This document shows positions 33,678 to 51,174 of a DNA stretch of 64,000 nt, piece after piece. The notes below the pieces were generated by a model, which searched no databases, was not told the origin of the DNA, and saw only the letters and a list, made by a program, of their open reading frames with translations. The position numbers and the translations under genes are program-made. The stretch is taken from assembly GCA_965250285.1 (NCBI GenBank), contig OZ252299.1, positions 4,576,001 through 4,640,000 of the forward strand, given 5' to 3'. This DNA comes from Myxococcota bacterium. GTDB lineage: Bacteria; Myxococcota_A; UBA9160; UBA4427. Positions within the stretch are counted from its first letter, which is position 1. Every line of letters begins with the position of its first letter.

Positions 33678-35663
33678 ATGGCGAAGGCGGGCGGCTCCGG
33701 CTCCGACCAGGAAGGCGATGCCCGCGACCACGCGCCGCTCGTGGTCGGCACGGCCGGCCACATCGATCATGGCAAGACGTCGCTGATTCGCGCGCTCACC
33801 GGTCTCGACCTCGACCGCCTGCCCGAAGAGAAGGCGCGCGGCATCACGATCGATCTCGGCTTCGCGCCCCTCGATCTGCCCGGAGGGCGGCGCATCGGCG
33901 TGGTCGACGTGCCGGGGCACGAGGGACTCGTGCGCACCATGGTCTCGGGGGCGACGGGCATCGACGTCGTGCTGCTCGTCGTCGCCGCCGACGAAGGGGT
34001 CATGCCGCAGACGCGCGAGCACCTCGCGATCTGCGACCTGCTCGACCTGCGACACGGGCTGGTCGCGCTGACGCGGAGCGACCTCGTCGACGACGAAACC
34101 TGCGAGCTCGCCGAAGCCGAGATGCAGGATCTGCTCGCCGGGACGACCCTCGAAGCCGCGCCCATCCTCGCCGTCTCGGCCGTGACCGGCGACGGCATCG
34201 AGGCCCTGCGCGAGACCCTCGCCCGGGTCTGTGTCGAAGCGGCGCCCCGCACCCCACGACAAGGCCCTGCCCGACTGAACGTCGACCGCGCATTCACGAT
34301 GCGGGGCTTCGGCTCGGTGGTGACCGGCACGCTGGTCGGTTCGGATCTCACCGTCGGCGACGCGATCGAGCTGCTGCCCGAGGGCCACACCGCGCGCGTG
34401 CGCGGGCTTCAGCGACACGGCGACGCCGTCGATGCGGCCCACCCCGGTGCACGCTGCGCGGTCAATGTGCAGGGCGTCGAGCAAGACGCGCTGTCACGTG
34501 GGCAGGTCGTCGCGAAGCCCGGCACCGTCCCGACGACCGACGTCGCCGACGTCCACCTCCACTGGCTTGCGACCTCGCCCGAAGAAACGGGCGTCGTCGC
34601 CGTCGAGCTGCTCTGCGGCACGAGTGAACGACGCGCCCGCCTGGCGCCGATCGGCCCCGACGCGACGCTGCGGCCGGGCACCACCGGCTTCGCGCGGCTG
34701 CATGTCGACGGCCCGCCGATCGCCGTGTTGCCCGGCGAGCGATTCATCGTGCGCGGCTTCGCGCGACACGACCTGGCGGGCCACACCCTGGGCGGCGGCC
34801 GCTTCCTCGATATCGCCCCCCCGCGCCGCCGTCGCAGCGACCCCGTGCTCACACACGAGCTCGAAGCGCTCGACACCGGCGACGTCACCGAAGCCCTGGC
34901 GGTGCGCGTCGCGCGCGGCGGGCTCACGGGCGTCGACGAAGCAACGCTGCGCCTGCAGATGGGGATCGAGCGCGAGCCCCTGGCCGCGATCGTCCACGAG
35001 CTCGAGGCGAAGGACCGCATCGTGCGCACGGCCTCGTCGCGGCTCGTCCTGGCCGAAGCCATCACGCGACTCGCCGAGCGGCTGATCGAGGCGCTCGCGG
35101 CCTACCACGAGCGCGAGCCGCTGCGCCCGGGCATGTCGACCGCAGCGCTGCGCGCCACCCTCCCCGACAACGTCGCCCGCGATACGGCCGAGCTGACGCT
35201 CTCGCGCCTCGAGGCCGACGGGCGCATCGTCGCCGAAGGAGATCTCGTGCGGCAGCCCGCACATGCGCCAAGGCTCGACGACCGCGCACAGACGCTCGTC
35301 GGCCGCATCGCGAGCGAGAGCAGCGAAGCGGGCCTCGAGCCCCCCAGCCCGCGCGACCACTGCGCAGCACTCGGCATCGAGCTCACCGAGTACCGCGACC
35401 TGGTCGCGTATCTCGAACGCCAGGGCGCACTCGTGCGTGCGCCGGGCGATCTGTGGTTCGACGCCAGCTCCATCGATGCGCTGCGGGCGCGACTCGTCGC
35501 GCATCTCGAGGCCGAAGGCGAGATCGACACCCAGACCTACAAGAACCTGATCGGCACCACGCGCCGCACGGCCATGCCGCTGATGGAGCTCTTCGACGAG
35601 CTTCAGGTCACCCGCAGGCAGGGCGACGTGCGGGTGCTGCGCAGGGGCGCCGCGGGCAAGTAG
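33678..35663 (+). CDS. selB: Selenocysteine-specific translation elongation factor
   Basis: [36 protein letters not shown]-terminal winged-helix domains. Confidence 0.95.
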
Positions 35664-35669
35664 AGCGGT

Positions 35670-37145
35670 TCAACGAACCAGCCCGCTCAAGACGTCGGCC
35701 AGGCCGGGCGCGGGTCGCCAACCCAGATACAGCACGACGGCCGTGCACAGACCGAGCACGATCACCTCGGCTGTCGAGAGGCCGGCCGTCCGGCCCGTCG
35801 GCTTCGGCCGCGCAAACATCGCGATGGGCACGGCGAGCAGATAGCGCCAGCTCACGCCGACGCCGACGAGCGCGACGATCACCGGCCACACCAGGCCTTC
35901 GGCCACCGCGGCCGAGAAGAGGTTGTACATCGCCCAGAACCCGCCCGTCCCCGGCAGCCCGGCGAGCGCGAGCAGAAAGAGCGCGAGCGCCGTGGCCGCC
36001 ACTGGGCGCACGCGCGCGAGCCCGGCGAAGTCGTCGACCGTCTCGACATCGCGACCCCCGTGCGCGAACGAGGCCGTCAGGCCATGGGCGCCGAGCACGA
36101 TGAAGGCGTAGACGAAGACGTAGAAGAGCACGGCCTCGAACGCCTCGGTCGACGAGCAGGCCAGCCCGAGCGCCAGATGTCCCGAGTGCGCGATCCCCGC
36201 GCACGCGAGCATGCGGCGCACCGAACGCGCAACGAGGGCCAGACCGTGCCCGACCACGATGCTCGCGACGGCCAGCACCTGAAAGAGCCCCGTCACCGGA
36301 GCCAGGCCTTCGGGGATCGCCTCATCGAGCAGTCGCAGCAGCACGATCACTGCGGTCGTCGGCATCGCGACCGCGAGATAGCCGGCGGTCACGTTCGGCG
36401 CGCCCTGGAAGACGTCGGAGACCCACTGGTGGAACGGAAAGAGCGCGAGCTTGAAGAGCAGCCCGCAGAGCAGCAGCCCGAGCCCGGCGAGGCCGAGCCA
36501 GTCGCTGCCATCGAGCCCAGCCCAGAGCGCGCCATAGCCAAGCTCGCCGGTCGCCCCGTAGAGCAGCGCCATGCCGAAGAGCATCAGACCGCTCGCGAAG
36601 CCACCGGTGAGGTGCAGCTTCAGACCGGCCTCGAGGCTCTCGGCGCGGCGCACGTCGTACGCGGCGAGCAGCGACAGGCAGATCGACGAGAGTTCGAGAC
36701 CGACGTAGAGAAACGCGAGATGGCCGGCCCCGATCGCGACGAACATGCCCGCAGAGGCGAGGAGGACGAGCGCGTGAAAGGGGCCCTGCTCGAGCCGCGC
36801 GGCCGATAGCATCGTGACCGAGAGCCACAGCGTCGCGAGCGCGGCCGAGGCGAGAATCAACGTACCGACGCTCGTCAGCCGATCGACGAGGAAGAGCCCT
36901 GTACGCACGTCGAAGGCCGGCTCGACCGCGCCGACGAGCGAGCTCCAGGCCGAGAGCATGACCGCGCCGAGGGCGACCGAGCTCGTGAGGGCGAGCAATG
37001 GACCGCGCCGTGAAGGCGCGCCTTCGACGCCGCCGCGTCGCCGCCGGACCGACGCCGCGCCGTCGATCAGCAGCGCGACCAGCGCACCGAGCGTCACGAA
37101 GAGCACGGGCGCAAAGACGTCCCAGCGCGGGATCATGTCGATCAC
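35670..37145 (-). CDS. nuoN: Divergent NuoN-like antiporter-like subunit
   Basis: GLELSS, EAGLK, FKLALFPFHQWVSDVFQGAP, RRMLA...IAH, LAGLPGTGGF. Confidence 0.8.
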   Translation of the reverse strand: MIDMIPRWDVFAPVLFVTLGALVALLIDGAASVRRRRGGVEGAPSRRGPLLALTSSVALGAVMLSAWSSLVGAVEPAFDVRTGLFLVDRLTSVGTLILASAALATLWLSVTMLSAARLEQGPFHALVLLASAGMFVAIGAGHLAFLYVGLELSSICLSLLAAYDVRRAESLEAGLKLHLTGGFASGLMLFGMALLYGATGELGYGALWAGLDGSDWLGLAGLGLLLCGLLFKLALFPFHQWVSDVFQGAPNVTAGYLAVAMPTTAVIVLLRLLDEAIPEGLAPVTGLFQVLAVASIVVGHGLALVARSVRRMLACAGIAHSGHLALGLACSSTEAFEAVLFYVFVYAFIVLGAHGLTASFAHGGRDVETVDDFAGLARVRPVAATALALFLLALAGLPGTGGFWAMYNLFSAAVAEGLVWPVIVALVGVGVSWRYLLAVPIAMFARPKPTGRTAGLSTAEVIVLGLCTAVVLYLGWRPAPGLADVLSGLVR

Positions 37146-37185
37146 GGCCGCAGCGCCTCTGCTCGGTCCGCCTGAAGGGGCACGA

Positions 37186-38820
37186 TCAACGGGCCTCCGG
37201 CCGAACGTCGGCGCTTGCCTGTGCGTCGTCGAACTCGGCAGGGGCGCCGCGCAGCTCCATCACGTGAAGCACCTCGAGCACCGCGGGCTCGACACGTCGG
37301 AGCATCGGGTTCGGCATCACGCCGAGCACCACCAGCGAGACGATCAACGCGAGCACGCCGAATCGCTCGCCCCAACCGAGATCGATCAAGCCGCGGTTCT
37401 CCGGATTCTCGACCGGCCCGAGCGCGACCGCGCGGTAGCCGCGCAGGAGACATGCACCGGTGAGCAGCACCCCGAGTAGCGCGACGAGCGTGAGCACGGG
37501 CGAGACCGCGAACCCGCCTGCCAGCACGAGCAGCTCGCCCACGAAGCCGAGAGTCCCGGGGATCCCCGACATCGCGAAGAGGGCCGTCGCGAGCAGCAGC
37601 GAGAACACCGGCATCGGCTTCGCGAGGCCCCCGTACGCCGCGAGCACGGTCGAGCCTCGCCGCTCGACCAGCAGGTTCACCAGGGTGAGCAGCGCCGCGC
37701 TTGCGAGCGCCACGCTCCAGCCATGCACGAGCGCGCCGACGATGCCGTGCTCGCCGAGCGTGAAGACGCCGAGCGTGACGAGCCCGAGCGACGCGGTGTG
37801 CGCGTAGGCCTGTAGTGTGCGCAGGTCACTCTGCGCGCCGGCGACGAGCGCGCCGTAGGCCAGCCCGACGACCGAGAGCATGCTCACGAAGGGTGCGACG
37901 GCAGCGGCGCCCTCGGGCAGCAGCGGCAGGCCGACTCGTACCACGAGATAGATCCCCACGACCCCCTGCAGCACGTCGAGCAGCACGAGGCCGTCCGGCG
38001 GCGCCTGCGCGGCGGCGCGCGCCGACCACACGTGGAAGGGGAAGGCGCGCAGTCGCATCGCGATCGAAACGAGCAGCGCGACGAAGAGTGTCGACTGCGT
38101 CGCCCAGCCGGGTCCGGTCGTCGGCACGTCGACGTCGAGGAGACCGGGCGCTGCGTAGCCTGCTCCGCTCACGAGATCGAACACCCAGACGTGCAGCTGT
38201 TCATAGCCGAGGCGGTGTACGACGATCAAGACGAAGAGCATGCCCATGCTGCCGAGTGCGGCCGGGATCAACCACGCGTAGGCCGCCGCCACCGGTCGCT
38301 CGCCGCCCCAGCTCACGATCATGAAGCCGATGGGCAGGAGCATCAGCGTCCAGAACAAGTGCATCTGCATCACGTTCATCGAGAGCAGCGCACCCAGCAT
38401 CAGAGACTGCAAAGCGAGCACCCGCGCGACGGCGCCGGCCGTGAAACGCGAGGCATCACCGGGCGTCGACCAGCATGCGGTCGGCACGATGAAGAGCACC
38501 AGCAAAACGGGGAAGAGCGAGAGACCGTCGACCGCGAAGTAGAAATGGAAGCCGTACTGCGGCAGCCACTCCCAACGCTCGACGTGCTGTAGCCCGAGCA
38601 GCTCGGGATCGAAGCCTGACCACAACCCCGCCGCAGCGACCGCGAACTGCAGCGTCGTGAAGCCGATCCCGAAGCGTCGCCACACGCCCACGGGCGCGCG
38701 CTCGACACCGACGGCGCGGGCGACCAGCGCGTTCAGCGCCAGCACGAGCGCGGCCGCAACCAGCGGCGCGAGCACGAGCGCCGTCAGCCATCCGCCGAAC
38801 GTGTCGGCCCCGGCTCCCAT
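37186..38820 (-). CDS. nuoM: Divergent NuoM-like antiporter-like subunit
   Basis: AVDGLS, WGGE, FPFHVW, YGGLAKPMP, GIPGTLGFVGE. Confidence 0.8.
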   Translation of the reverse strand: MGAGADTFGGWLTALVLAPLVAAALVLALNALVARAVGVERAPVGVWRRFGIGFTTLQFAVAAAGLWSGFDPELLGLQHVERWEWLPQYGFHFYFAVDGLSLFPVLLVLFIVPTACWSTPGDASRFTAGAVARVLALQSLMLGALLSMNVMQMHLFWTLMLLPIGFMIVSWGGERPVAAAYAWLIPAALGSMGMLFVLIVVHRLGYEQLHVWVFDLVSGAGYAAPGLLDVDVPTTGPGWATQSTLFVALLVSIAMRLRAFPFHVWSARAAAQAPPDGLVLLDVLQGVVGIYLVVRVGLPLLPEGAAAVAPFVSMLSVVGLAYGALVAGAQSDLRTLQAYAHTASLGLVTLGVFTLGEHGIVGALVHGWSVALASAALLTLVNLLVERRGSTVLAAYGGLAKPMPVFSLLLATALFAMSGIPGTLGFVGELLVLAGGFAVSPVLTLVALLGVLLTGACLLRGYRAVALGPVENPENRGLIDLGWGERFGVLALIVSLVVLGVMPNPMLRRVEPAVLEVLHVMELRGAPAEFDDAQASADVRPEAR

Positions 38821-38821
38821 T

Positions 38822-40864
38822 TCAGAGCACTCCGCCGAGCGTCAGCCCGAGCACCACGAGCACCGCCCCCACCAACATCGATGCGAGCACACCCTGCGCA
38901 TAGCCGGCCTGGCCGTAGCGATCGAAGAGGCCGCCCACCCAGTCGGCCAGCTTCGCAGGGGCCGTCTCGAGCACGAACACGAGCAGGCGCTCTCCGATCG
39001 GCCCCCGCGCGAGCTGCCGCGCCACGGCCGAGCTCGGCACGATCACCAGCCAGCCGAAGACATTGTCGGGATCGAGCGCGTCGACGACGCGGCGCCCCGG
39101 CCCTCGAAACCGGTTGCGCAGATCGAGCACCGGCTCGGCCCGATTGCGAAACAACAGCCGGGCGCCGACCGCGCCGGCGGCCATCGCGAGCACCTGCAGG
39201 CCGATCCACGTCGACTGCCGACCCGGCTCACCGCGCGGCGGATGAACGTCGGGCAGCACGGGCTCGAAGAACACCGACAGACTGTTCATCTGCTCGATCT
39301 CGAGCGCGTCACCGAAGATCTGAGACACGCCGATCACACCGCCGAACGCGCACAGGACGGCGAGCGCGCCGAGGCTCCAGAGCGAGGGCGTGCGCGGCTC
39401 CCAGGCGAGGCGACGTCGCGCGGGGTCAAACGAGCTGCGCACGGGAAACACCAGGTAGTAGAGACGGATCGTCGTCAAGGCCGTGAAGAACACGGTCAGC
39501 AGCACGAGCACGCACAGCGTCAGATGCCCGGGCAGCTCGACCGCGCGGTCGGCGGCGTCGAGCACCTGCTCGATCGAGAAGAACGCGATCGTCGGCGGCA
39601 GCCCCGCCATGGTCAGCGCACCCACGAGCGTGAAGGCCTGGGGCCACACCATCGCGAGGCCCAGCGGCTGCAGCTTCGTGCGATCGTGCTGATGCCCGCG
39701 CGCCTTGCTCGCGGTCGCGATCCCGAGAAACAGAAGCGCCTTGGCACACGCATGCGCCGTGACGTGAAAGAGCGCAACGTCGTAGGCACCGAGCCCGACG
39801 GCGAGCGCCGCGATCGAGAGCTGGCTGCCCGTCGTCCACGTCAGGATCGCGCGGCCGTCGTCTTCGGCGAGCGAGGCGAGCACGAAGAGCAGCGCGCCCG
39901 CGGCCGCCACCCAGCAGAGCGCCGTCTCGAGCAACGGCACCGCCTCGAACAGAAAGCCGACCCGCACGAGCAGCAGAATGCCGGTGCACGGCATCGCGAC
40001 CGCCTGCATGAACGCCGACGCCGGCGAGGGCGCGACCGAGGCGGCGCGTAGACCGAACATGAAGGGCAGCACGAAGAGGCGGGACGCCGCGGCCAGCGCG
40101 AAGAGCAGCCCGGTGTAGACGGCCGGCGCGACTCCCGGTGCCTCCCCCTCGTGGGCAGGCGGCGGGACGGCGAGCAGCGTGTCGCGGGCGGCGCGGAGGC
40201 TCGACCAGGACAGGTCGGCGCCGCCGCCATCGACGAGCTGCCAGAAGACGCTCAGGAGCCCGGCGAGGAAGAGCGCGTCGCCGGTCCGTTGCCGCAGCGA
40301 CACCTTCTGGAGCGCCGCGCGCCGATCGGCTTCGCCGTACCAGAAGCCGACGAGCAGCCGACCGAAGAGGCCGCACGACACCCACGCGGCGAACGCCAGC
40401 ACCATGTCGTCGGCGAGCACGAAGAGCAGGACGGCCGCGAGCAACGCACACGCGTAGGCGCAGAAGCGCTGCAAGCCGCCGTCGTCGTGGTCATCGCGCG
40501 CCATGTGGATGCCCGCGTGGATCTGGATCGCGAGACCGACGTAGCTCGCGACGAGGCAGAGCAGAGCGGCGACCGGGTCGAATCGCAGGACGAACGCGAC
40601 ATCGAGCGCTTCGGCGCCGACGCCGAGCCCGAACCAGCTGCCGACGCGATCGACGATCGGCACCTCGATGCCGCCGCTCACGAGCCGTGCAAAGAAGAGG
40701 GTCGAGAGCAGCGCCGGCACGGCGAAACCCGCGGCCGCGACCCAGGCGATCGTGCGATCGGCGAGCTGACGTCGCAGCACCCCGCTGGCGATGCCAAGGG
40801 CGAGGGCGACGACGAGCGGCGCAGCGGGGATCCACACCAGATCAGCGGGGCCGGTCCAGCTCAT
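38822..40864 (-). CDS. nuoL: Divergent NuoL-like antiporter-like subunit
   Basis: LLVGFWY, RTGD, SQL, FHVTAHACAKALLFL, C-terminal transverse-helix region ending QAGY. Confidence 0.8.
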   Translation of the reverse strand: MSWTGPADLVWIPAAPLVVALALGIASGVLRRQLADRTIAWVAAAGFAVPALLSTLFFARLVSGGIEVPIVDRVGSWFGLGVGAEALDVAFVLRFDPVAALLCLVASYVGLAIQIHAGIHMARDDHDDGGLQRFCAYACALLAAVLLFVLADDMVLAFAAWVSCGLFGRLLVGFWYGEADRRAALQKVSLRQRTGDALFLAGLLSVFWQLVDGGGADLSWSSLRAARDTLLAVPPPAHEGEAPGVAPAVYTGLLFALAAASRLFVLPFMFGLRAASVAPSPASAFMQAVAMPCTGILLLVRVGFLFEAVPLLETALCWVAAAGALLFVLASLAEDDGRAILTWTTGSQLSIAALAVGLGAYDVALFHVTAHACAKALLFLGIATASKARGHQHDRTKLQPLGLAMVWPQAFTLVGALTMAGLPPTIAFFSIEQVLDAADRAVELPGHLTLCVLVLLTVFFTALTTIRLYYLVFPVRSSFDPARRRLAWEPRTPSLWSLGALAVLCAFGGVIGVSQIFGDALEIEQMNSLSVFFEPVLPDVHPPRGEPGRQSTWIGLQVLAMAAGAVGARLLFRNRAEPVLDLRNRFRGPGRRVVDALDPDNVFGWLVIVPSSAVARQLARGPIGERLLVFVLETAPAKLADWVGGLFDRYGQAGYAQGVLASMLVGAVLVVLGLTLGGVL

Positions 40865-41244
40865 CCCGCCTGCTCCTGTGCAGGCGTCGCGCTGCCTTCT
40901 GCGCCCCGCCCGGCGTGACCGAGACGGTTCGCGTCATCGACGTCGGCGCTGCCGCGTCGGCGCACGACGGCCAGCGCGAGTCCCATGCCGACCAGGAGCT
41001 GCACCACGCCGACGACGAGCACGATGAAGGCAAAGGCCTGGCCTTCGAGCGTGGGTGGCGCGCCGGCGCCGAGCGCGCGACCCGCCCACATGCGATTGAA
41101 ACCGACGAACGCGAGTGCGCTCGCGAACGTCACCAGCTGCAGACCGAAGAGCACGACGACGGCGTGACGCCGGCGAATCGATCCGACCAGACCGAGCGCA
41201 AACAGCAGGATCGCGAGACCGAGGACGTGGTCGACACCGACCAT
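40861..41244 (-). CDS. nuoK: Divergent NuoK-like subunit
   Basis: LFALGLVG...RR, GQAFAF, RRRGSADVDD; three TM segments; TGATG overlap with nuoJ. Confidence 0.8.
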   Translation of the reverse strand: MVGVDHVLGLAILLFALGLVGSIRRRHAVVVLFGLQLVTFASALAFVGFNRMWAGRALGAGAPPTLEGQAFAFIVLVVGVVQLLVGMGLALAVVRRRGSADVDDANRLGHAGRGAEGSATPAQEQAG

Positions 41245-41753
41245 CAACGATCTCCCTCGTCGGCCAGCACGCGACTCGCGACGAGACCCACGAGCAGGAT
41301 CAGCGAGAGACCGACGAGCGGCGCCGCAAACTCGCGGTAGAGGGTCTCACCGAGGGCGAACACGCTCCCGAGCCCCGCGTCGACGGGGAGGTCGGGCCGC
41401 GGCGTGCTCTCGAGCGTGAGCAGCACGACGCCGGCGAGCGATGCAGCGGCGATGACGCCGAGGGCATTCAGGACGCGCCGACGCACCGAGCGCGCGGGCA
41501 GGGGCTCACTCTCGAGATCGACGAGCAACACGACGAAGAGCAGACCGACGCCGGCCGCCCCGATCACGAGGAGCAGCTGCGCGACGCCGAGGAAGGGCGC
41601 GGCGAGCAGCGTGAACAGACCCGCCAGCGCCAGCTGACAGAGCACCGCGCCCATGGCCGCCCCCACGGTCGTCCGCGCCGTCAGGATCAAGACGAGCGCG
41701 CCGACCACCGCGACGGCGGCGAGCCCCTGGAAGCCGATCGACGCCGCGCTCAC
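41244..41753 (-). CDS. nuoJ: Divergent NuoJ-like subunit
   Basis: LAAPFLGVAQ...GA...LFVVLL, ALGETLY; five TM segments; GTGA overlap with nuoH. Confidence 0.75.
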   Translation of the reverse strand: MSAASIGFQGLAAVAVVGALVLILTARTTVGAAMGAVLCQLALAGLFTLLAAPFLGVAQLLLVIGAAGVGLLFVVLLVDLESEPLPARSVRRRVLNALGVIAAASLAGVVLLTLESTPRPDLPVDAGLGSVFALGETLYREFAAPLVGLSLILLVGLVASRVLADEGDR

Positions 41754-42715
41754 GAGAGCCCCGGACGCGCGACGAGCCACCAGCCGGTCAGAAAGACGTT
41801 CACGATCGAGAGCGGCACGAAGAGCCGAAAGCAGAGAAAGCTGACCCGCGCTTCGGGCAGCGGCGCCATGCGGCTCCCGACCCACCGGATGAAGCCGAAC
41901 ACGAGCAGCGTCTTGACCAGAAAAGAGGTCGCATGCAGCGCGGCACACAGCAGCGCGCCGACCGTGAGTCCATAGCTCTTCGTCAGCACGGGCTCGAGCG
42001 TCGATTCGGCGAGCCACGGAATCGACCATCCACCGAGACCCAGCGTGACGACGTAGCCGGCGAGCAGAAGCGTGTTCACGAAGTCGGCGACGACGGCGTT
42101 GCCCAGCCGCAGGCCGCTGCCCTCGGCGTGCAGCGAAGTGAGTGACTCGGCGCTCGCCGCTGCGAGGTCGAAGGGCGGCAGGCGCAGCGCACCGAGCCCG
42201 CAGATCAAGACGAGCCCCACCGCCAGCGGGTTCAGCAGCACGCCCCAGAGCGGCAGGCGCACTGTGATGCGACCCGCTTCGGGCCATGCGAAGCCGGCGG
42301 TCGAGACGATCTCGGCGGGCGTGGTCGTCGTGTCTTGTCGGGCGGCGATGTCGACGAGTTCGAGCGAGCCGTACACGAGGGCGAGCGGCAGGGTGGCCAG
42401 CGCGAGGGCCACACCGTACGAGAGCGTCTGCGCACCGGCGCCGAGGCAGGCTCGGCGCGCGGCTTCGTCGCGCACCGACCAGCCCATTGCGGCGAACCCG
42501 AGCGCCGACATACAGACGAGCGCGACGGGCACGAGGATCGACGCGTCGACGTCGGCGACGACGAGCGACACGGGCCGCTCGCCGACCAGATACGACGAAC
42601 CGAACGGGAGCACACCCAGGCTGGCGACGGCGACGACGACCGTCCAGGCCGGACCGAGCCGATCGAGCCAGGGGATCGTGCGTGCCGACGTCGGCTGCGT
42701 CGCATCGGCGCTCAC
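41750..42715 (-). CDS. nuoH: Divergent, N-terminally truncated NuoH-like subunit
   Basis: VLPFG, GWS, AQTLSY, PFDL, LGGW; GAGGGGG RBS before the GTG at 42715. Confidence 0.75.
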   Translation of the reverse strand: MSADATQPTSARTIPWLDRLGPAWTVVVAVASLGVLPFGSSYLVGERPVSLVVADVDASILVPVALVCMSALGFAAMGWSVRDEAARRACLGAGAQTLSYGVALALATLPLALVYGSLELVDIAARQDTTTTPAEIVSTAGFAWPEAGRITVRLPLWGVLLNPLAVGLVLICGLGALRLPPFDLAAASAESLTSLHAEGSGLRLGNAVVADFVNTLLLAGYVVTLGLGGWSIPWLAESTLEPVLTKSYGLTVGALLCAALHATSFLVKTLLVFGFIRWVGSRMAPLPEARVSFLCFRLFVPLSIVNVFLTGWWLVARPGLS

Positions 42716-42758
42716 GCCAACCCCCTCGGAGCGTGCGGTGAACCAACGGCATTCGCGT

Positions 42759-43094
42759 TCATGGGCCGTCGTCCTCGAGGCCACCTCGGGTGATCAGGTG
42801 TGCGAACCCGACGAGCAGCGGGGCCGTGATCAGCGCCGCGACCCCGAGCCCCGCCCGGCCGAGCGTCTCGACCCGCGCAGCCCAGGCCGCCAGCAGCAGA
42901 ACCAGGGCCCCGAAGGCGACGAACAGCGCGGCGTAGACCTGGAAACGCGCGAGCGCGCGCAGCGAGTCGACCGGCGCGTCGGGCGGATCGCGGCGTGGGC
43001 GCCGGGGCGCGACGCGCACGTGAAAGAGCACGAGCAGGCCAGCGATCAGGCCGCCGACGGCGGTCAGCGTGAGCAGCGCCGCGTAGTCGCCCAT
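42759..43094 (-). CDS. nuoA: Divergent NuoA-like subunit
   Basis: Three TM segments, AALF...WA...LG, terminal RGGLE (cf. KGALEW); GGAGG RBS; first gene of the operon. Confidence 0.7.
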   Translation of the reverse strand: MGDYAALLTLTAVGGLIAGLLVLFHVRVAPRRPRRDPPDAPVDSLRALARFQVYAALFVAFGALVLLLAAWAARVETLGRAGLGVAALITAPLLVGFAHLITRGGLEDDGP

Positions 43095-43342: not shown

Positions 43343-44356
43343 ATGAATGTGCCCATCACCGTCCTCGGCTCCGGCAGCTTCGGCACCTGCCTCGCGATCC
43401 TCTGCGCGCGCGAGAACCCGGTTCGATTGTGGTCGCGATCGCAGAAGGTCGTCGACGCGATCAACGAGACGCGTCGCAATCCGCAGTACCTGACTGAATT
43501 CGAGCTGCCCGAGTCGGTCGAGGCCACGGCCGATCTGGCCACGGCGCTCGAGGGCAGTGAGATGATCGTCATCGCCGTGCCGAGTCACGGGTTGCGTGAG
43601 GTGATGGCCAAGGCCGCCCCGTTCATCCCCGACGGCGCGATTCTCGTCTCGACCGTCAAGGGCATCGAGTACGAGACCGGGATGACGATGCATCAGGTGC
43701 TCGAGGACGTGGTGCCCGAGACGCACCATCGCAAGATCGTGGCGCTCTCGGGCCCCTCTTTCGCCCGCGAGATCGCGGAGCACCGCGCCACCGTCGTCAC
43801 CGTCGCCTGCGCCGACGAGGCCTTCGCCATCGCCGTGCAGGAGACGCTCTCCTGCCCCTGGTTTCGCTGTTACTCGAGCACCGACGTGATGGGCGTCGAG
43901 ATCGGCGGCGCCCTCAAGAACGTGATCGCGATCGCCGTGGGCATGAGCGACGGCATGGACGGTTCGCTCAACAGCCGCGCGGCGCTCATGACCCGGGGCC
44001 TGGCCGAGATCGCGCGCCTCGCCGAGCGGCTCGGCGGCGATCCGACGACGCTGCACGGACTCTCGGGCATGGGCGATCTCGTGCTGACGTGCACCGGCGA
44101 CCTCTCGCGCAATCGGCGGGTCGGCCTCGCGCTCGGCCGAGGTCAGCGCCTCGAGGAGATCATTCGCGACCTGGGCGAGGTGGCCGAGGGGGTGCGGACG
44201 ACCCAGGCGGCCTGCCGGCTCGCGGCGCGCGTCGGCGTCGAGCTGCCGATCTGCGAGATGGTGCGGCAGGTGATCGACGGCGAGATCACGCCGACCCGCG
44301 CGGGCACCGAGCTCATGAACCGCCAGCTCGGCAGCGAGCGAGGCGGCGGCCGCTAG
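43343..44356 (+). CDS. gpsA: NAD(P)H-dependent glycerol-3-phosphate dehydrogenase
   Basis: GSGSFG, LSGPSFA, GGALKNVIAI, GMGDLVLTC, SRNRRVG. Confidence 0.96.
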   Translation: MNVPITVLGSGSFGTCLAILCARENPVRLWSRSQKVVDAINETRRNPQYLTEFELPESVEATADLATALEGSEMIVIAVPSHGLREVMAKAAPFIPDGAILVSTVKGIEYETGMTMHQVLEDVVPETHHRKIVALSGPSFAREIAEHRATVVTVACADEAFAIAVQETLSCPWFRCYSSTDVMGVEIGGALKNVIAIAVGMSDGMDGSLNSRAALMTRGLAEIARLAERLGGDPTTLHGLSGMGDLVLTCTGDLSRNRRVGLALGRGQRLEEIIRDLGEVAEGVRTTQAACRLAARVGVELPICEMVRQVIDGEITPTRAGTELMNRQLGSERGGGR

Positions 44357-44470
44357 CGGCGTTCGAAGCGAGACAGCGTGCAGCGCGTCACTTTGCGACC
44401 GTGTTCGCCAATCGAAAACCGAGCCGGAAGCGCTGCCGCAAGTCCCCTCCAACGCTACGGTTTCGCGATC

Positions 44471-44487
44471 ATGAAATCGAATTTCAA
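44471..44487. promoter_or_regulatory. Delta-proteobacterial-type Fur box candidate
   Basis: ATGAAATCGAATTTCAA resembles WTGAAA-N5-TTTCAW and lies at the start of feoAB. Confidence 0.55.
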
Positions 44488-44764
44488 CGAGGGCGACGCG
44501 GGCGAGCGCGTCTTCTCGCTCGATCAGGCTCAGCCGGGCACCGAGGTGGTGGTCGAACGCATCGATCTCGACCATGCCCCGGTCGGCCGTCGTCTCGTCG
44601 ACCTGGGCCTGCTCCCCGAGACGCGCCTGAAGGTCGTGCGGCGCGCCCCGCTCGGCGACCCCACGGAGTTCGCCCTGCGCGGCTACCGGCTGTGTCTCCG
44701 CCGCAGCGACGCGGCCCAGATCTGGGTGCGCGAGAGCCCCGCCCCCTCACAGGACGACGCGTGA
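44471..44764 (+). CDS. feoA: Ferrous iron transport protein A
   Basis: RRLVDLGLLP...APLGDP...LRGYRLCLRRSDA. Confidence 0.92.
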   Translation: MKSNFNEGDAGERVFSLDQAQPGTEVVVERIDLDHAPVGRRLVDLGLLPETRLKVVRRAPLGDPTEFALRGYRLCLRRSDAAQIWVRESPAPSQDDA

Positions 44765-44816
44765 TCGACGCCCTGCTCGAAGCCCGCGCATGGCCCCTGG
44801 TGCAGAGGACGATCGC

Positions 44817-46697
44817 TTGAGCGACGCGACGCTCACTCTCGGACTGGTCGGCAGCCCGAACGCGGGCAAGACGACCCTCTTCAACGCGCTGACCGGTCTG
44901 CGCGCGAAGGTGGGGAACTACCCCGGCGTCACGGTCGAGCGGCGCGAGGGACGGGTTCAGCTCGGAGATCACGCTGCGCGTCTGATCGACCTGCCGGGCA
45001 CCTACTCGCTCGATCCGCTGAGCCCCGATGAAGCCGTGGTCAACGAGGTGCTCGACGGACGCATCGACGGCCTGGCGGCCCCCGAGGCCCTGGTCGTCGT
45101 CGCCGACGCGTGCTCGCTCGAGCGATCGCTGCTGCTGGTCGGGCAGGTGCTGCGGCGTGAGCAGCCGACGGTGCTGGTGCTGACGATGTACGACGAGCTC
45201 GCCGCGCGCGGGGGGGAGCTCGACCTTCCGCGCCTCGAAGACGCCCTCGGCGTGCCGGTGGTGCCCGTGGTCGGCCACAAGGGCGTCGGCCTCGAGCGGC
45301 TGCGCACCCTGCTCGGCGATCCGAGCGGATGGTCTCGCCCCGCCCTGCTGCCGCCCGAGACGACCGAAGAGCGGGCGGCGTGGGTCTCGTCGATCCTCGA
45401 CCACGTCGTGACCGACGCGCCGCGCGACCACGACCTGACCGAGCGCATCGACCGCGTCGTCCTGCACCCGGTGGCCGGCCCCCTGCTGTTCGTGGCCGTG
45501 ATGGTGACGTTCTTCCAGCTGATCTTCGCCTGGGCGAGCCCCGCGATGGACGCGATCGACGCAGGCGTCGGCGTGCTGGCGTCGGGGGCGCGCGGCGTGC
45601 TGCCACCGGGGCTCGTCGCCGACTTCGTCGCCGATGGCCTCATCGCGGGGGTCGGGTCGGTCGTGATCTTCGTCCCGCAGATCACGCTGCTCTTCGGGTT
45701 GCTCTACCTGCTCGAGGACGTGGGCTACATGGCACGCGCCGCCTTCGTCGTCGACCGCGCCATGGGTCGCATCGGCCTCGAGGGCCGCGCGTTCGTCGCG
45801 CTGCTCTCGTCGTACGCCTGCGCGGTGCCGGGCATCATGGCGACCCGCACGATCCCCTCGCCCCGAGACCGTCTGGTCACGATCCTCGTCGCCCCCTTGA
45901 TGACGTGCTCGGCGCGGCTGCCGGTATACGCGCTGCTGATCGGCGCATTCGTGCCCGAGCGCACGCTCGCGGGCTTCATCGGCCTGCAGGGCCTCGTGCT
46001 CTTCGCGCTCTATTTCGTCGCGCCGGTCTTCGCGATGATCGTTGCGGCCCTGCTCAAGCGGACGATCGCGCGCAGCGACGCGATGCCCTTCGTGATGGAG
46101 CTGCCCACGTATCGGGTGCCCACCTTCAAGCTCTGGGGCGCGCAGCTGTGGCGCAGTGTCTCGGCCTTCTTGAAGCGCGCAGGCACGATCATCCTGCTCG
46201 CCTCGATGGTGCTCTGGGTGCTGCTCACGTTCCCCCACGTCGAGCCGCCCGCCGGGCTGGACGAAGAGCAGGCCGCTTCATACGCCCTCGAGAACAGCTT
46301 CGCCGGACGGGTCGGACATGCCATCGAGCCCGCCATCGAACCGCTCGGCTTCGACTGGAAGATCGGCGTCGGACTCGTCGCCAGCCTCGCCGCACGCGAG
46401 GTCATCGTGGCGACGCTGGCGCAGATCTACGCCGCCACAGACGAAGACGCGTCGCTCCGCGGCGCGATCCGCAGGGACATCGATCCGCGCACGGGCGAGC
46501 GCGTCTTCGGCCCGGCCACCGTCGGGTCACTGCTCGTCTTCTTCGTGTTCGCGCTGCAGTGCGTCTCGACGATCGCGATCATCGCGCGCGAGACGAACTC
46601 GTGGCGCTGGCCCTTGTTCGCGTTCACGTATCTGCTCGTGCTCGCCTACGGGGCATCGTTCGTCACCTATCGCGTGGTCAGCGCGTTGACCGCGTGA
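44817..46697 (+). CDS. feoB: Ferrous iron transport protein B
   Basis: GSPNAGKTT, GNYPGVTVE, DLPGTYSL, CSARLPVY; TTG start after GAGGA (alternative ATG at 44790). Confidence 0.95.
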   Translation: MSDATLTLGLVGSPNAGKTTLFNALTGLRAKVGNYPGVTVERREGRVQLGDHAARLIDLPGTYSLDPLSPDEAVVNEVLDGRIDGLAAPEALVVVADACSLERSLLLVGQVLRREQPTVLVLTMYDELAARGGELDLPRLEDALGVPVVPVVGHKGVGLERLRTLLGDPSGWSRPALLPPETTEERAAWVSSILDHVVTDAPRDHDLTERIDRVVLHPVAGPLLFVAVMVTFFQLIFAWASPAMDAIDAGVGVLASGARGVLPPGLVADFVADGLIAGVGSVVIFVPQITLLFGLLYLLEDVGYMARAAFVVDRAMGRIGLEGRAFVALLSSYACAVPGIMATRTIPSPRDRLVTILVAPLMTCSARLPVYALLIGAFVPERTLAGFIGLQGLVLFALYFVAPVFAMIVAALLKRTIARSDAMPFVMELPTYRVPTFKLWGAQLWRSVSAFLKRAGTIILLASMVLWVLLTFPHVEPPAGLDEEQAASYALENSFAGRVGHAIEPAIEPLGFDWKIGVGLVASLAAREVIVATLAQIYAATDEDASLRGAIRRDIDPRTGERVFGPATVGSLLVFFVFALQCVSTIAIIARETNSWRWPLFAFTYLLVLAYGASFVTYRVVSALTA

Positions 46698-47689: not shown

Positions 47690-48087
47690 GGCCGGCGCGA
47701 TTGCGCTCGCACGCGAACCGTTGGGGGCGAGCGGCGTCTCACTGTCGATGTTGCCGGGCGCTTGCCTGTGGCTGAAGCCCCAGAGGGCAGCGGGCTTGGC
47801 CGAGCGCATCGGAACGTCGGATGACGCGCGCGATCTCGATCGGTTCGAATCTCGATCCGACACCCGCATGGCCCCGTGAGTCACCTACCTGAACCCGCAA
47901 AGAAGCCGCCCCTTTCGCCCCGCCATCGGGCATCATCAGCGGCTCCCGTGACGCGCCCGGACCGTGACTCGATCGCGGAACGCCGGACGTGCATCGACCT
48001 GCCGACCCGGCGGGTCCAAGAGATCCGGCGGCCCTGTGCGCTTCGAACGCGCGCACCCGCCCCACCGAGTACGGAGTACCGCCCTGC

Positions 48088-51000
48088 ATGACCGCGTTCC
48101 AGGTCTTCCTTCTCTGTCTGGTCGCTTTCGTTGCTTCGCGATTCGCGCCCGATCCCTGGAAGGGTCGGCTGGTGAATGTCGCGAAGGCAGCGTTCACGAT
48201 CGCGGCCTTCTGGGCGCTGCTCGCCTACGAGCTCACGAACGCACAGGGCGAGAGGCAGACGGTCTGGTCGATGATCGTCGAGATCTACGAGAACATTCAG
48301 CCCGCGACGTTCTGGTTCTGGGTGCTCGTCGCGACCGGCGTGAAGCTCGTCGGCATCCTGTGCTCGATGTATCGCTGGCAGCTCGTGCTGCGCGGCCAGA
48401 ACATCGAGCTCCCGTTCCGCCACATCTTCGGTTCGTTCATGATCGGCCGTGCGCTCGGCACGTTCCTGCCGAGCACGGCCGGCCTCGACGGCTACACCCT
48501 CTACGACGCGGCGCGCTTCACCGGCCGCACCGTGGAGGTCTCGGCCGGCAAGTTCCTCGAGAAGATCTGCGGCTTCACGGGCGTCTTCCTCACGTTCCTC
48601 GTCACGCTGCCCTTCGGCATCGCGATCCTCGGTGACCTCGCCTGGATGGCGTACGTCTCGGCCGTGATCGCCATCGGGATCATCGGCGGCCTGATGATCG
48701 TGCTCTTCTACCCCGGCGCCGTGCAGTGGGTGCTGACGAACGTGCCGATCCCGGCGAAGGCCCGGCTCGAGGGCATCGTCACCCGCATCAGCGAGAGCGC
48801 CGGCGCCTACCGCGACAAGAAGGGCCTCGTCTTGATGATCTTCGCCATGAGCTTCATGGTGCACTTCACGACGGCGGCCATGTACTACTACACGGCGCTC
48901 GCGATCGGCGCCGAGGGCGCGAAGTTCTGGGAGATCACGTTCGGCTCGTCGATCCAGATCTTCGCCACCGTGATCAGCCCCTTCACGATCGCGGGTGAGG
49001 GCATTCGCGAGGCCGCCCAGGCCCTGCTGCTCCAGAACCAGATCGGCGCGGGCGCGGCCGTCATCTCGGCGGCGCTCGGCTTCTGGGCCGCCGAAGCGCC
49101 GACCATGCTCGGCTTCGTCTTCTGGTGGATCCGACCCGACGACTACAAGCCGGAGTATGCGCGGGTGAACGGCGTGCAGGTCGACTGGGACGAGGCGGCC
49201 AAGGCGTCGGTGGCGCTCGACCCTTCGCGCTCGAAGGAGGAGCTCGAGGCCGAGGTCGGCGCCGCGGCGCCGATGAGCGAGCGCTTGCTGCGCAGCGCGA
49301 GCGTCGGCTGCGGCTCGGGCGTGCTCGCGGGCATCGTGATCGGCCTCGCCGAGACGGCGGTGATCGCCCAGGGCGGCTTCGGCGACGACGCCCAGGTGCT
49401 CTGGTACGGACCGATGATGTACGCGGTCTTCCTCGGCGGCCTGGGCACACTCGGAGGTCTCGTGCTCGGCGTGCTGCCGATGGATCGAGACGAGATCCAG
49501 AGCTGGACGCCGACGCTCGGCTTCGCTGCGTGTCTCGTGCCGTTGGGCCTCTTCGTCACGCTCTTCCGGCTGCGGCGCGACGTCTACCTCGAGCAGATGC
49601 CCCCTGCGCCGGTTCTGGTCGGCGTGCTCGCCGGCTTCGCGCTGCTCACGTTCGTGATCCTCTACTTCGGCCAGCGCTTCTTCGGCTCACGCGTTGGCAT
49701 CATCGCGCGTGCGCCGATCGCGATCGGGCTGCTCGTGCTCGTGATGGGCACCGGGCTGGCGCTGGGCATCGGCTACGGGCCCGACCGAACGCCGCCCGCC
49801 GGCAGCATCGCGAGCGGGTTGGGCGATCGACCCAACATCATCTTGATCATGGTCGACACGCTGCGCGCCGACTATCTGCCCTGCTACGGCGACGAGCAGG
49901 TGTCGGCGCCGCACATCTGCAGCCTCGGCGAAGCAGACGGCGGCATCGTGCTCGACGGCTACAGCCACGCCTCGTGGACGAAGCCCGCGACGGCCAGCCT
50001 GCTGAGCTCGCTCGTGCCCACCACCCACAACGCGATGAGCAAGCCCTCGCGGCTCTCGGACGAAGTCGATTTGGTCTCGGAAGTGATGCAGGCGCAGGGC
50101 TATTCGACCGGCGGCATCGTATCGAACATCAACCTCGCCGAGAGCTTCGGTTTCGATCAGGGCTACAACGAGTACCACTATCTCGCTCCCAGCTACCTGC
50201 TCGGGGCGGACGAGTCGTCGTCGAAGCTCATCCTCTATCAGATCTTTCGGAGCGTCTATCTCGGCGTCTTGAAGAAGGGGATCACGTTCGACGGCTTCTA
50301 TCAGGATTCACGTGTCGTCAACGCCGTTGCCTTCGACTGGCTCGACCGATTCAAGGACGACCGGTTCTATCTCTTCCTCCACTACATGGACGTCCACGAC
50401 CCCTACTTCGAGCATCCCTACGATGGCCGTGGCTTCTCGCGCGTATCGAATCCGTGGCCGAGCCCCGAGCAGACCGAGGATCTCAAGCGGCTGTATCGCG
50501 GCGAGCTCGAGTACCTCGACGAGGGGGTGGGCGAGCTGATCGCGCACCTGAAGCAGCTGGGGATCTACGACGACACGATGATCATCCTCACGGCCGATCA
50601 CGGCGAGGAATTCTACGAGCACGATGGCTGGTGGCACGGTCTCACGCTCTTCGAAGAGCAGATCCACGTGCCGCTGCTGATCAAGCCCGCAAGGGGCCAG
50701 ATGACGCCGCCCTACACGCGCATGGCCCGGCACATCGACGTCGTGCCGACGATCATCGACGTGGCCGGCGCGGCGCAGCCCGAGCGCATGCAGGGCGTCT
50801 CGCTCTACGTGAGCGAGGCCGATCGCAGCTCGAAGGATCGTCAGCACTTCGCCGAAGAGGATCACGAGGGCAACGTGCTGTGGAGCCTCACGGACGAGAC
50901 GATGAACAAGGTGATCGTCGTCGAGAACGGCGGTGCTCACCGCGAGCTCCCCGATGCAGCCGTGTATGACCTCGACGACGACCCCGACGAGGCGCGCAAT

Positions 51001-51174
51001 CTCGCCGAAGACGACCCGCTGCGGCTCGACGAACTCAAGAGCTACGGCGATCTGCAGCGCCGCGCCGCCGAAGGGGAGGCGGTCGAGTCGGGCGGCGACG
51101 TCGAGATGACCCTCGACGAGTGCCTGCAGCTCATGAATCTCGGTTACGTCGAAGACTGCGACCATCTGAACTAG
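48088..51174 (+). CDS. Fusion of LPG-synthase-TM (UPF0104 flippase-like) domain, TM linker and sulfatase-superfamily domain
   Basis: N-terminal RWQLVL...FLPST.GLD, SPFTIAGEGIRE; C-terminal PNIILIMVDTLRAD, HYMDVHDPY, TADHGEEF, HVPL. Confidence 0.85.
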   Translation: MTAFQVFLLCLVAFVASRFAPDPWKGRLVNVAKAAFTIAAFWALLAYELTNAQGERQTVWSMIVEIYENIQPATFWFWVLVATGVKLVGILCSMYRWQLVLRGQNIELPFRHIFGSFMIGRALGTFLPSTAGLDGYTLYDAARFTGRTVEVSAGKFLEKICGFTGVFLTFLVTLPFGIAILGDLAWMAYVSAVIAIGIIGGLMIVLFYPGAVQWVLTNVPIPAKARLEGIVTRISESAGAYRDKKGLVLMIFAMSFMVHFTTAAMYYYTALAIGAEGAKFWEITFGSSIQIFATVISPFTIAGEGIREAAQALLLQNQIGAGAAVISAALGFWAAEAPTMLGFVFWWIRPDDYKPEYARVNGVQVDWDEAAKASVALDPSRSKEELEAEVGAAAPMSERLLRSASVGCGSGVLAGIVIGLAETAVIAQGGFGDDAQVLWYGPMMYAVFLGGLGTLGGLVLGVLPMDRDEIQSWTPTLGFAACLVPLGLFVTLFRLRRDVYLEQMPPAPVLVGVLAGFALLTFVILYFGQRFFGSRVGIIARAPIAIGLLVLVMGTGLALGIGYGPDRTPPAGSIASGLGDRPNIILIMVDTLRADYLPCYGDEQVSAPHICSLGEADGGIVLDGYSHASWTKPATASLLSSLVPTTHNAMSKPSRLSDEVDLVSEVMQAQGYSTGGIVSNINLAESFGFDQGYNEYHYLAPSYLLGADESSSKLILYQIFRSVYLGVLKKGITFDGFYQDSRVVNAVAFDWLDRFKDDRFYLFLHYMDVHDPYFEHPYDGRGFSRVSNPWPSPEQTEDLKRLYRGELEYLDEGVGELIAHLKQLGIYDDTMIILTADHGEEFYEHDGWWHGLTLFEEQIHVPLLIKPARGQMTPPYTRMARHIDVVPTIIDVAGAAQPERMQGVSLYVSEADRSSKDRQHFAEEDHEGNVLWSLTDETMNKVIVVENGGAHRELPDAAVYDLDDDPDEARNLAEDDPLRLDELKSYGDLQRRAAEGEAVESGGDVEMTLDECLQLMNLGYVEDCDHLN

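Follow-up and report, generated by a model that had tools for sequence, protein, structure and literature searches.

An orphan membrane arm of complex I that has lost most of its proton-translocation residues and is held by purifying selection in a myxococcotal genome

Introduction

The subunits of respiratory complex I are reported to be lost or transferred together, and the known partial forms drop the NADH module alone (PMC4453560). These 11-subunit forms, found in Campylobacter, as cyanobacterial NDH-1 and as archaeal Fpo, retain subunits B, C, D and I as well as the proton axis, and draw electrons from a new donor (PMC4453560). Here, we analyse a set of seven genes, nuoA-H-J-K-L-M-N, encoding a complex I membrane arm in a 64,000-nucleotide stretch of DNA (the window) from a Myxococcota bacterium (GenBank assembly GCA_965250285.1, contig OZ252299.1, positions 4,576,001 to 4,640,000 of the forward strand). 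Like the 11-subunit forms it has shed a module, and its relatives include intermediates that lack only E, F and G; unlike those forms, it is also without the quinone module. The genome that carries it, G000, is a single contig of 6.25 Mb with 70% GC and is 95.4% complete.

A sequence-only reading of the window had proposed that NuoJ, NuoK, NuoL, NuoM and NuoN (35670..41753) have systematically lost the residues needed for proton pumping in intact reading frames, and that selection has favoured structure over pumping. The locus proved to be larger than this, as it also takes in nuoA and nuoH, both of which are equally degenerate. The complete set spans 43094-35670 on the minus strand as a tightly coupled operon.

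Results

Residues were mapped by alignment to the Nuo proteins of Escherichia coli K-12 and of 38 relatives and are given in E. coli numbering; an independent check of residue equivalence in NuoL and NuoM, using phmmer alignments to solved chains, was in agreement. A set of 18 mechanistic sites was defined, comprising NuoA D79 and E81, NuoH E157, NuoJ Y59, NuoK E36 and E72, and the Glu of transmembrane helix 5 (TM5), the Lys of TM7, the His/Lys of TM8 and the Lys/Glu of TM12 in NuoL, NuoM and NuoN. The mechanistic roles of NuoA E81 and NuoL H254, which are counted in this set, are presumed. Roles of residues in the set have been described previously (PMC13324432, PMC9271201, PMC3046159, PMC7419157). 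All 18 sites are kept in 14 canonical relatives, which were picked by a high NuoH score. G000 keeps three and replaces 15, and so does not have the charged E-channel and central axis of complex I; of the other non-Gly/Pro sites that are invariant in the canonical relatives it keeps 325 of 698 (one-sided Fisher test, p = 0.009). The same test gave p < 0.05 in 14 of 19 degenerate genomes, among which kin are not independent. The five without p < 0.05 come from G021, G032, G013, G030, G059 or G047 (range 0.05-0.35), the rows above 0.05 numbering six if all are counted; G002 is near-canonical and was kept separate. The G000 arm is thus stripped of most of its proton-carrying residues, to an extent greater than chance loss.

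The individual replacements named in the sequence-only reading were all recovered in the alignment. The nuoJ-like gene (41244..41753, minus strand, as are all seven; 169 residues; PF00499) carries Y59V as well as E142V, and the nuoK-like gene (40861..41244; 127 residues; PF00420) carries E36Q (codon 41139-41137) and E72Q (41001-40999), with R25 and R26 kept. NuoK also has a C-terminal tail of about 17 residues past its usual end (window 40861-40920), which is mostly missing in the congener G001. In the nuoL-like gene (38822..40864; 680 residues) the changes are E144V (40381-40379), K229R, H254Q and K399I (39574-39572), while R175, D178, H334, H338 and K342 are kept. The nuoM-like gene (37186..38820; 544 residues) has E144T (38349-38347), K234R, K265V and H322S and keeps E407 and H241; besides these, H248 and H348 are lost (H248A, H348V), and histidines lie 3 and 4 residues before the H322 and H348 positions. 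The nuoN-like gene (35670..37145; 491 residues) encodes the most conserved subunit (86% identity to G001), in which E133, K217, H224 and H305 are kept and K247P and K395M have occurred. In the two genes that extend the locus, the nuoA-like gene (42759..43094; 111 residues, ATG start; PF00507, E 5.7e-6) has D79G and E81L, and the docking loop between TM1 and TM2 (PFECG in canonical relatives) is shortened and lost. The nuoH-like gene (41750..42715; 321 residues, GTG start at 42715) has E157G and R291P and is without the first helix and the following loop: PF00146 is matched at positions 64-297 of 298, and the protein begins after the first helix in G000, G001 and G025 alike.

These states are shared within the clade. 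NuoL E144V, K229R and H254Q are fixed in all seven to eight clade sequences that span these sites, with identities as low as 65%. In NuoM, the A260 position (codon 37977-37975) has become Asp in 9/9 clade sequences; this residue is private to the clade and sits at the position occupied by H254 in NuoL. R236 and an acidic residue at 254 were gained in 9/9 as well, and E407 is kept, so that the clade-invariant changes in NuoM include the gain of a buried Asp and two Arg. A260D is the one compensating-type change that the alignment revealed; otherwise the losses stand. The proposal that fold-defining motifs persist holds for Gly and Pro (120/171 invariants kept) and fails for aromatic residues (60/148 in the genus clade), which are not specially retained. 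The argument drawn from 'conservative' Glu-to-Gln and Lys-to-Arg swaps is weak, because each of these swaps needs just one base change and non-conservative replacements are found in other lineages.

Across 22 degenerate genomes, the residues kept in at least 90% are mostly Gly and Pro, together with NuoN E133 and H224, NuoM H241, NuoK R25/R26, NuoH K274 and residues of the periplasmic hairpin; none of the central lysines is among them. We take NuoM H241 and NuoN H224 to contact the transverse helix. NuoN E133 is kept in every degenerate genome that has NuoN. Different degenerate lineages keep different subsets of residues (genus g7, for example, keeps NuoM E144, K234 and K265 and loses E407), so there is no single ion path common to all.

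The redox half of the complex is missing from G000. No match to the NuoD and NuoB families (PF00346, PF01058) was found in this genome, the controls being found in 11 of 14 genomes, and the large and small catalytic subunits of hydrogenases of the membrane-bound, Ech or Hyf type, which belong to the same families, are likewise absent. Family-specific hidden Markov models detected no orthologues of NuoB, NuoCD or NuoI in G000 and only a formate-dehydrogenase-type EF/G pair; the sole PF01512 (NuoF-like) match is the EF fusion of that cluster, next to molybdopterin oxidoreductase and MobA-like genes. The NADH module (NuoE, NuoF and NuoG) is absent too, and nuoA and nuoH are separated by a 43-nt spacer (42716..42758), where canonical relatives have nuoE-F-G (about 3.4 kb; 14 canonical loci mapped). 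In the canonical relatives the genes form two blocks, nuoA-E-F-G-H-J-K-L-M-N and nuoB-sucB-lipB-nuoI-C-D. Order-wide, the second block stands away from the remaining nuo genes, and a dihydrolipoamide acyltransferase gene and lipB are interspersed in it with nuoB and nuoI-C-D. In G000, lipB adjoins the gene that elsewhere comes after nuoD, and the same junction is present in G001, G007, G021, G027, G032, G019, G025 and G022, which are all eight of the genomes with lipB found among ten searched. The spacer and the lipB junction mark clean deletions of nuoE-F-G and of nuoB/I/C/D. With these modules missing, redox-driven proton pumping by the G000 arm would be impossible in any case. No second arm was found in the genome: tblastn with the window proteins returned self-matches only, there is one NuoH, and the four PF00361 genes are nuoL, nuoM, nuoN and a DabB-like gene beside DabA. 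This DabB-DabA pair (PF00361 and PF10070), of the inorganic-carbon pump type, lies elsewhere, at 5.07 Mb in G000.

NqrA-F are complete in G000, each scoring over its NCBIfam cut-off, and the genome also encodes three haem-copper oxidases and a cytochrome b, with a cytochrome b/oxidase cluster at 3.83 Mb. NqrB is over the cut-off in 23/24 degenerate genomes; among the 19 genomes without NqrB, only G014 (650 contigs) has a degenerate arm, and it has a second high-scoring complex I. Such a second copy, with NuoH and NuoD close together and probably acquired, accompanies the degenerate native arm in G014, G022 and G034. In the c subunit of the G000 ATP synthase (atpE), Gln, Glu and Ser are arranged like the Ilyobacter tartaricus Na+ ligands Q32/E65/S66 (PMC4453477), a predicted resemblance. 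Nearly all relatives share this pattern whether or not they have Na+-NQR, with Met replacing the Gln in genera g17 and g19. The c-ring motif does not set degenerate genomes apart from canonical ones.

The arm is held by purifying selection, like the flanking housekeeping genes. Between G000 and G001 the Nuo subunits are 69-86% identical, compared with 73% for selB, 81% for gpsA, 84% for feoB and 86% for serS, and 40-53% of four-fold sites differ. The sequence-only reading had proposed dN/dS among orthologues as a check, with values near 1 pointing to neutral decay. The value obtained, 0.116 over 2407 codons (MG94/F3x4; nuoH 0.199, nuoN 0.068), is far from this and comparable with selB (0.124), gpsA (0.079), feoB (0.083) and serS (0.059); omega values of 0.2 and of 1 were both rejected (twice the log-likelihood difference 67 and 1144). 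In 1800 runs of a neutral simulation at least four stops arose in each, typically 10-78, compared with zero in the real frames. Five other degenerate pairs gave 0.11-0.20 and three canonical pairs 0.080-0.086. The MG94/F3x4 model was used because dS was saturated in most pairs under the F61 codon model; it is still saturated for a sixth degenerate pair (G019/G025) and two flank controls. In a mixture-model Nuo tree the stem of G000 and G001 measures 1.56 changes per site and the tips 0.13-0.15, which points to a burst of change on the stem followed by conservation. The G000 arm is 27-45% identical to the canonical copies of G018.

The relatives preserve stages of the decay. Among 61 genomes the NuoH and NuoD scores drop together. 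From canonical complex I, the next stage is a degenerate form with decaying NuoF and NuoG (G013), in which NuoF has lost the glycine-rich FMN/NADH motif and NuoG some cysteines, the frames remain open and nuoE was not found. E, F and G are then gone, while NuoB and NuoI still have their Fe-S cysteines and NuoD is losing the second His and/or the Tyr; next, B, C, D and I are gone (g1, g7, g19 and G022), and in G012, G045 and the less complete G015 and G028 nothing of the complex was found. Within genus g14, degenerate NuoH is found in 22/23 genomes and NuoD in 23/23. No nuoA match was found at the G047 locus. G031 was left out because its nuo genes, without exception, and rpoB contain many frame breaks, which are likely to be an assembly error. 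On an RpoBC tree the degenerate state needs five changes. A single clade of all degenerate genomes was rejected on RpoBC (approximately unbiased test, p 4e-7), as was one of the NuoD-less genera (p 2e-6) and a third group that was named after the tree was seen (p 1.5e-4); these topology tests used 20 of 41 rows and quick trees. The mixture-model Nuo tree, made uncertain by long rows, has at least four origins (G047, G059, G004 with g7, and a clade beside canonical G018). A FastTree grouping of all degenerate Nuo copies was split by the mixture model and is therefore treated as long-branch attraction. By these trees, degeneration arose at least four times, and the residues lost differ from one origin to the next.

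All seven products match Nuo families, although the scores are below the NCBIfam cut-offs except for NuoK (one model) and NuoM (TIGR01972). AlphaFold models were made, and folds searched, for NuoL and NuoM; as the models were built from mixed alignments they lean towards the known fold. The NuoM model (predicted local distance difference test score 91.6) has TM-scores of 0.85/0.92 to 8qby_M and keeps 14 core helices. The NuoL model (82.1) has NuoL chains as its best fold matches and keeps 16 helices, the last one included, and the transverse helix. Seven membrane subunits with complex I folds (A, H, J, K, L, M and N) are thus predicted from the Pfam and NCBIfam matches and the two models.

The operon is flanked by a divergent gpsA (43343..44356, plus strand; Pfam), the same neighbour as in most relatives, which marks this as the ancestral locus of the nuo genes, and by a convergent selB (33678..35663, plus strand; Pfam), which ends 6 nt from nuoN, so that no downstream gene relies on transcription of the operon. 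That about 6 kb should be free of stops and frameshifts was confirmed for the five frames of nuoJ to nuoN, and assemblies of three sequencing runs, all from one study and one possibly the source, showed zero differing letters or indels. No sigma-70-type promoter was found upstream of the operon, which carries little weight at a GC content of 70%. A weak terminator-like hairpin with a T run lies on the operon strand, about 130 nt ahead of nuoA (43239-43222, minus; two overlapping matches compared with 0.3 in shuffles). Further out, a feoA-feoB pair follows gpsA (44378-46697, plus), and a 1061-residue open reading frame (47989-51174, plus) fuses a membrane region of the lysylphosphatidylglycerol-synthase type (PF03706) to a sulfatase domain.

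Discussion

We give about an even chance to the reading that this is a native complex I membrane arm which is assembled, proton-tight and non-pumping, and which purifying selection keeps for a structural role. Selection at the level of housekeeping genes, without redox input or a proton axis, argues that the arm has value apart from pumping. Of the earlier proposal of selection for structure rather than pumping, the part that stands is retention without pumping (dN/dS of 0.116, modelled folds); a role in structure only goes beyond the sequence evidence. In the history that we envisage, selection on coupling would have lapsed once Na+-NQR was oxidizing NADH. The NADH module (E, F and G) would have been lost first, a burst of change in the residues of the quinone site and proton axis would have followed, and B, C, D and I would have been deleted in several lineages. 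In isolation, Thermus Nqo12 and Nqo13 are passive proton conductors and slow the growth of E. coli, and K385I (Nqo12), K235M (Nqo13) and E377Q block proton conduction of the isolated modules (PMC11496545). Since wild-type modules let protons through once they are separated from the redox arm, a missing lysine would seal each of NuoL (K399I), NuoM (K265V) and NuoN (K247P and K395M). Nqo12 K385 aligns with Ile431 of the window NuoL (that is, K399I), so G000 naturally carries the laboratory blocking change; the middle lysine of NuoM is Val and NuoN is without both lysines. Other lineages appear to reach the same blocked state by other changes. NuoN E133, which is kept, is the only TM5 Glu whose loss has a modest effect in E. 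coli (PMC3046159). The weakest steps are that shape and subunit contacts would have been kept through the Gly/Pro helix breaks, the periplasmic hairpin and the transverse helix, and that the arm might act as a scaffold or organizer for other membrane complexes.

Several observations weigh against this reading. TM5 Glu-to-Gln changes speed conduction in isolated modules (PMC11496545), so the loss of TM5 Glu would be expected to raise and not to lower conduction. In most lineages a block in each module is not clearly beyond general relaxation. NuoM has gained D260, R236 and the acidic residue at 254 (9/9 clade sequences) and still has E407, and H334/H338/K342 remain in NuoL. Degenerate arms run at 3.9-7.4 times the RpoBC distance, compared with 1.6-2.3 times for canonical arms, so constraint is relaxed. 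NuoH and NuoD were not found in G012 (95% complete), G045 (99%), G015 (71%) and G028 (83%), which implies that the arm is dispensable in some relatives. In G029, which later alignments did not include, the frame is broken in nuoA, in nuoH and close to the end of nuoL, reflecting either decay or assembly error. Finally, NqrB occurs in many canonical genomes too, so NqrB alone is not the cause of the decay.

In the strongest alternative, the arm would be a redox-independent cation transporter, catalysing Na+/H+ exchange or providing a gated ion path, which would have partially returned to the Mrp ancestor and would balance the Na+ cycle of Na+-NQR. In the G000 clade, ions might move along NuoN E133/K217, the two Gln residues of NuoK and a rewired NuoM (R234, R236, D260, Q263 and E407). 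Mammalian complex I in its deactive form, like its membrane module, is reported to work as a Na+/H+ antiporter once it is uncoupled from redox chemistry (PMC3464577; bioRxiv 10.1101/2023.05.30.542932), and NuoN E133, never lost where NuoN is present, corresponds to the Na+-coupling MrpD E137 (PMC9568556, PMC7419157). The invariance of A260D at the NuoL H254 position, decay almost only alongside Na+-NQR, and the absence of an Mrp operon from G000 (only the four PF00361 genes) fit as well. However, the position of the essential Na+ carboxylate of Mrp, at NuoJ Y59, is Val, the proton-path residues of MrpA and MrpD are lost, no subunit has a full path and the blocks match laboratory blocking mutants. 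D260 is private to one clade, four CPA-family and one NhaA-family antiporter genes are already present in G000, and the c-ring motif is the same in degenerate and canonical genomes; we regard a transporter as rather unlikely. A new soluble or membrane partner bound to NuoL from its cytoplasmic side, in the way that DabA and CupA dock on NuoL-like subunits, with the arm serving the partner's reaction, seems to us quite improbable. It would explain why the NuoL cytoplasmic loops are at least as conserved as the helices in two lineages without nuoBCDI (0.83 versus 0.81 and 0.71 versus 0.59), the reverse of the canonical sets (0.56 versus 0.68 and 0.66 versus 0.71), but the pattern, which depends on loop boundaries placed manually on the model, is missing in the g14 and g17+g19 sets. 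Moreover, in the relatives examined the operon has no additional gene within it or next to it, and the G000 DabA has its own DabB partner gene. That either route, a rewired path or a NuoL partner, has given the arm a second, redox-independent function outliving complex I respiration, amounting to a new transporter that complex I has given rise to repeatedly, is possible though on balance doubtful.

Retention need not imply use. In an entrenched useless leftover, mutations that misfold or unseal the arm would be harmful for as long as it is expressed, and selection would seal and preserve it until one deletion takes the whole block. The leak through isolated modules that hampers growth (PMC11496545), the whole-block loss in some relatives, the relaxed rates and the frame breaks in G029 are all consistent with this. 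Yet a promoter mutation would free the arm from all constraint and spare the cell the making of about 2,450 membrane-protein residues, and the convergence of the operon end with that of selB means that polar effects give no protection. The arm has also survived synonymous divergence above 1 in several lineages, with NuoH in 22/23 genomes of one genus, and it stayed while the soluble nuo genes were cleanly deleted; we consider a leftover unlikely. Recent neutrally decaying pseudogenes or an assembly artefact, which the very low identity to canonical copies might suggest, have a negligible probability, given the intact orthologues in many genera and the three identical run assemblies. Recent neutral pseudogenes were rejected on the dN/dS of 0.116, the rejection of omega = 1 and the lack of stops where simulation gives at least four.

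Comparison with known systems

The arm is complex I by descent, and neither a working complex I nor an Mrp antiporter nor a hydrogenase module. It matches the complex I membrane arm of E. coli (3rko/7z84), Paracoccus denitrificans (8qby) and Thermus (4he8) in its seven subunits, in their order and lengths and in the predicted folds, and it occupies the native locus of the relatives' canonical operon, between gpsA and selB. It differs in that nuoB, C, D, I, E, F and G are absent from the genome and the first helix of NuoH and the docking loop of NuoA are gone. Mrp (CPA3) likewise has stand-alone antiporter-like subunits without a redox module, and NuoN E133/K217 correspond to MrpD E137/K219. 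The G000 arm is nevertheless of Nuo descent (its best NCBIfam and fold matches are Nuo), has NuoH and NuoA, and is without MrpB, E, F and G. Using published equivalences (PMC7419157), neither the Na+-site Glu of Mrp, which is Val in NuoJ, nor the Glu-Lys-Lys-Lys/Glu path of MrpA and MrpD, which is broken in NuoL, NuoM and NuoN, is present; of the Mrp path residues only the MrpD E137/K219-equivalent pair is kept. DabAB shows a NuoL-like subunit working without a redox arm, but DabB is one subunit with DabA and forms a separate pair in G000, where no DabA or Cup partner gene lies beside nuoL, the flanks of the locus being gpsA and selB. In the SAR116 replacement of nuo by nqr, Na+-NQR also takes over and a leftover nuoL stands beside nqr (PMC8547437). 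That case, in the text of the paper, concerns one leftover gene without residue or selection analysis (PMC8547437), whereas G000 keeps all seven at their own locus, far from nqr. In a search of the main texts of mainly the open literature, we found no paper on a seven-gene orphan arm with lost proton residues.

Compared with the known partial forms, it is the opposite half that survives here: about 2,450 membrane residues that lack both a redox input and a proton axis, and this in several lineages independently. The family amounts to a mutagenesis series made by nature, in which a laboratory blocking mutation recurs in natural form and intermediates are preserved in relatives, and it bears on the structural role of the arm in bacterial membranes and on Na+/H+ exchange by uncoupled complex I. 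Were the transporter or partner reading to be true, the natural variants would directly test the residues behind this long-debated exchange. The locus also cautions that annotated nuoL, nuoM and nuoN are no proof of a working complex I.

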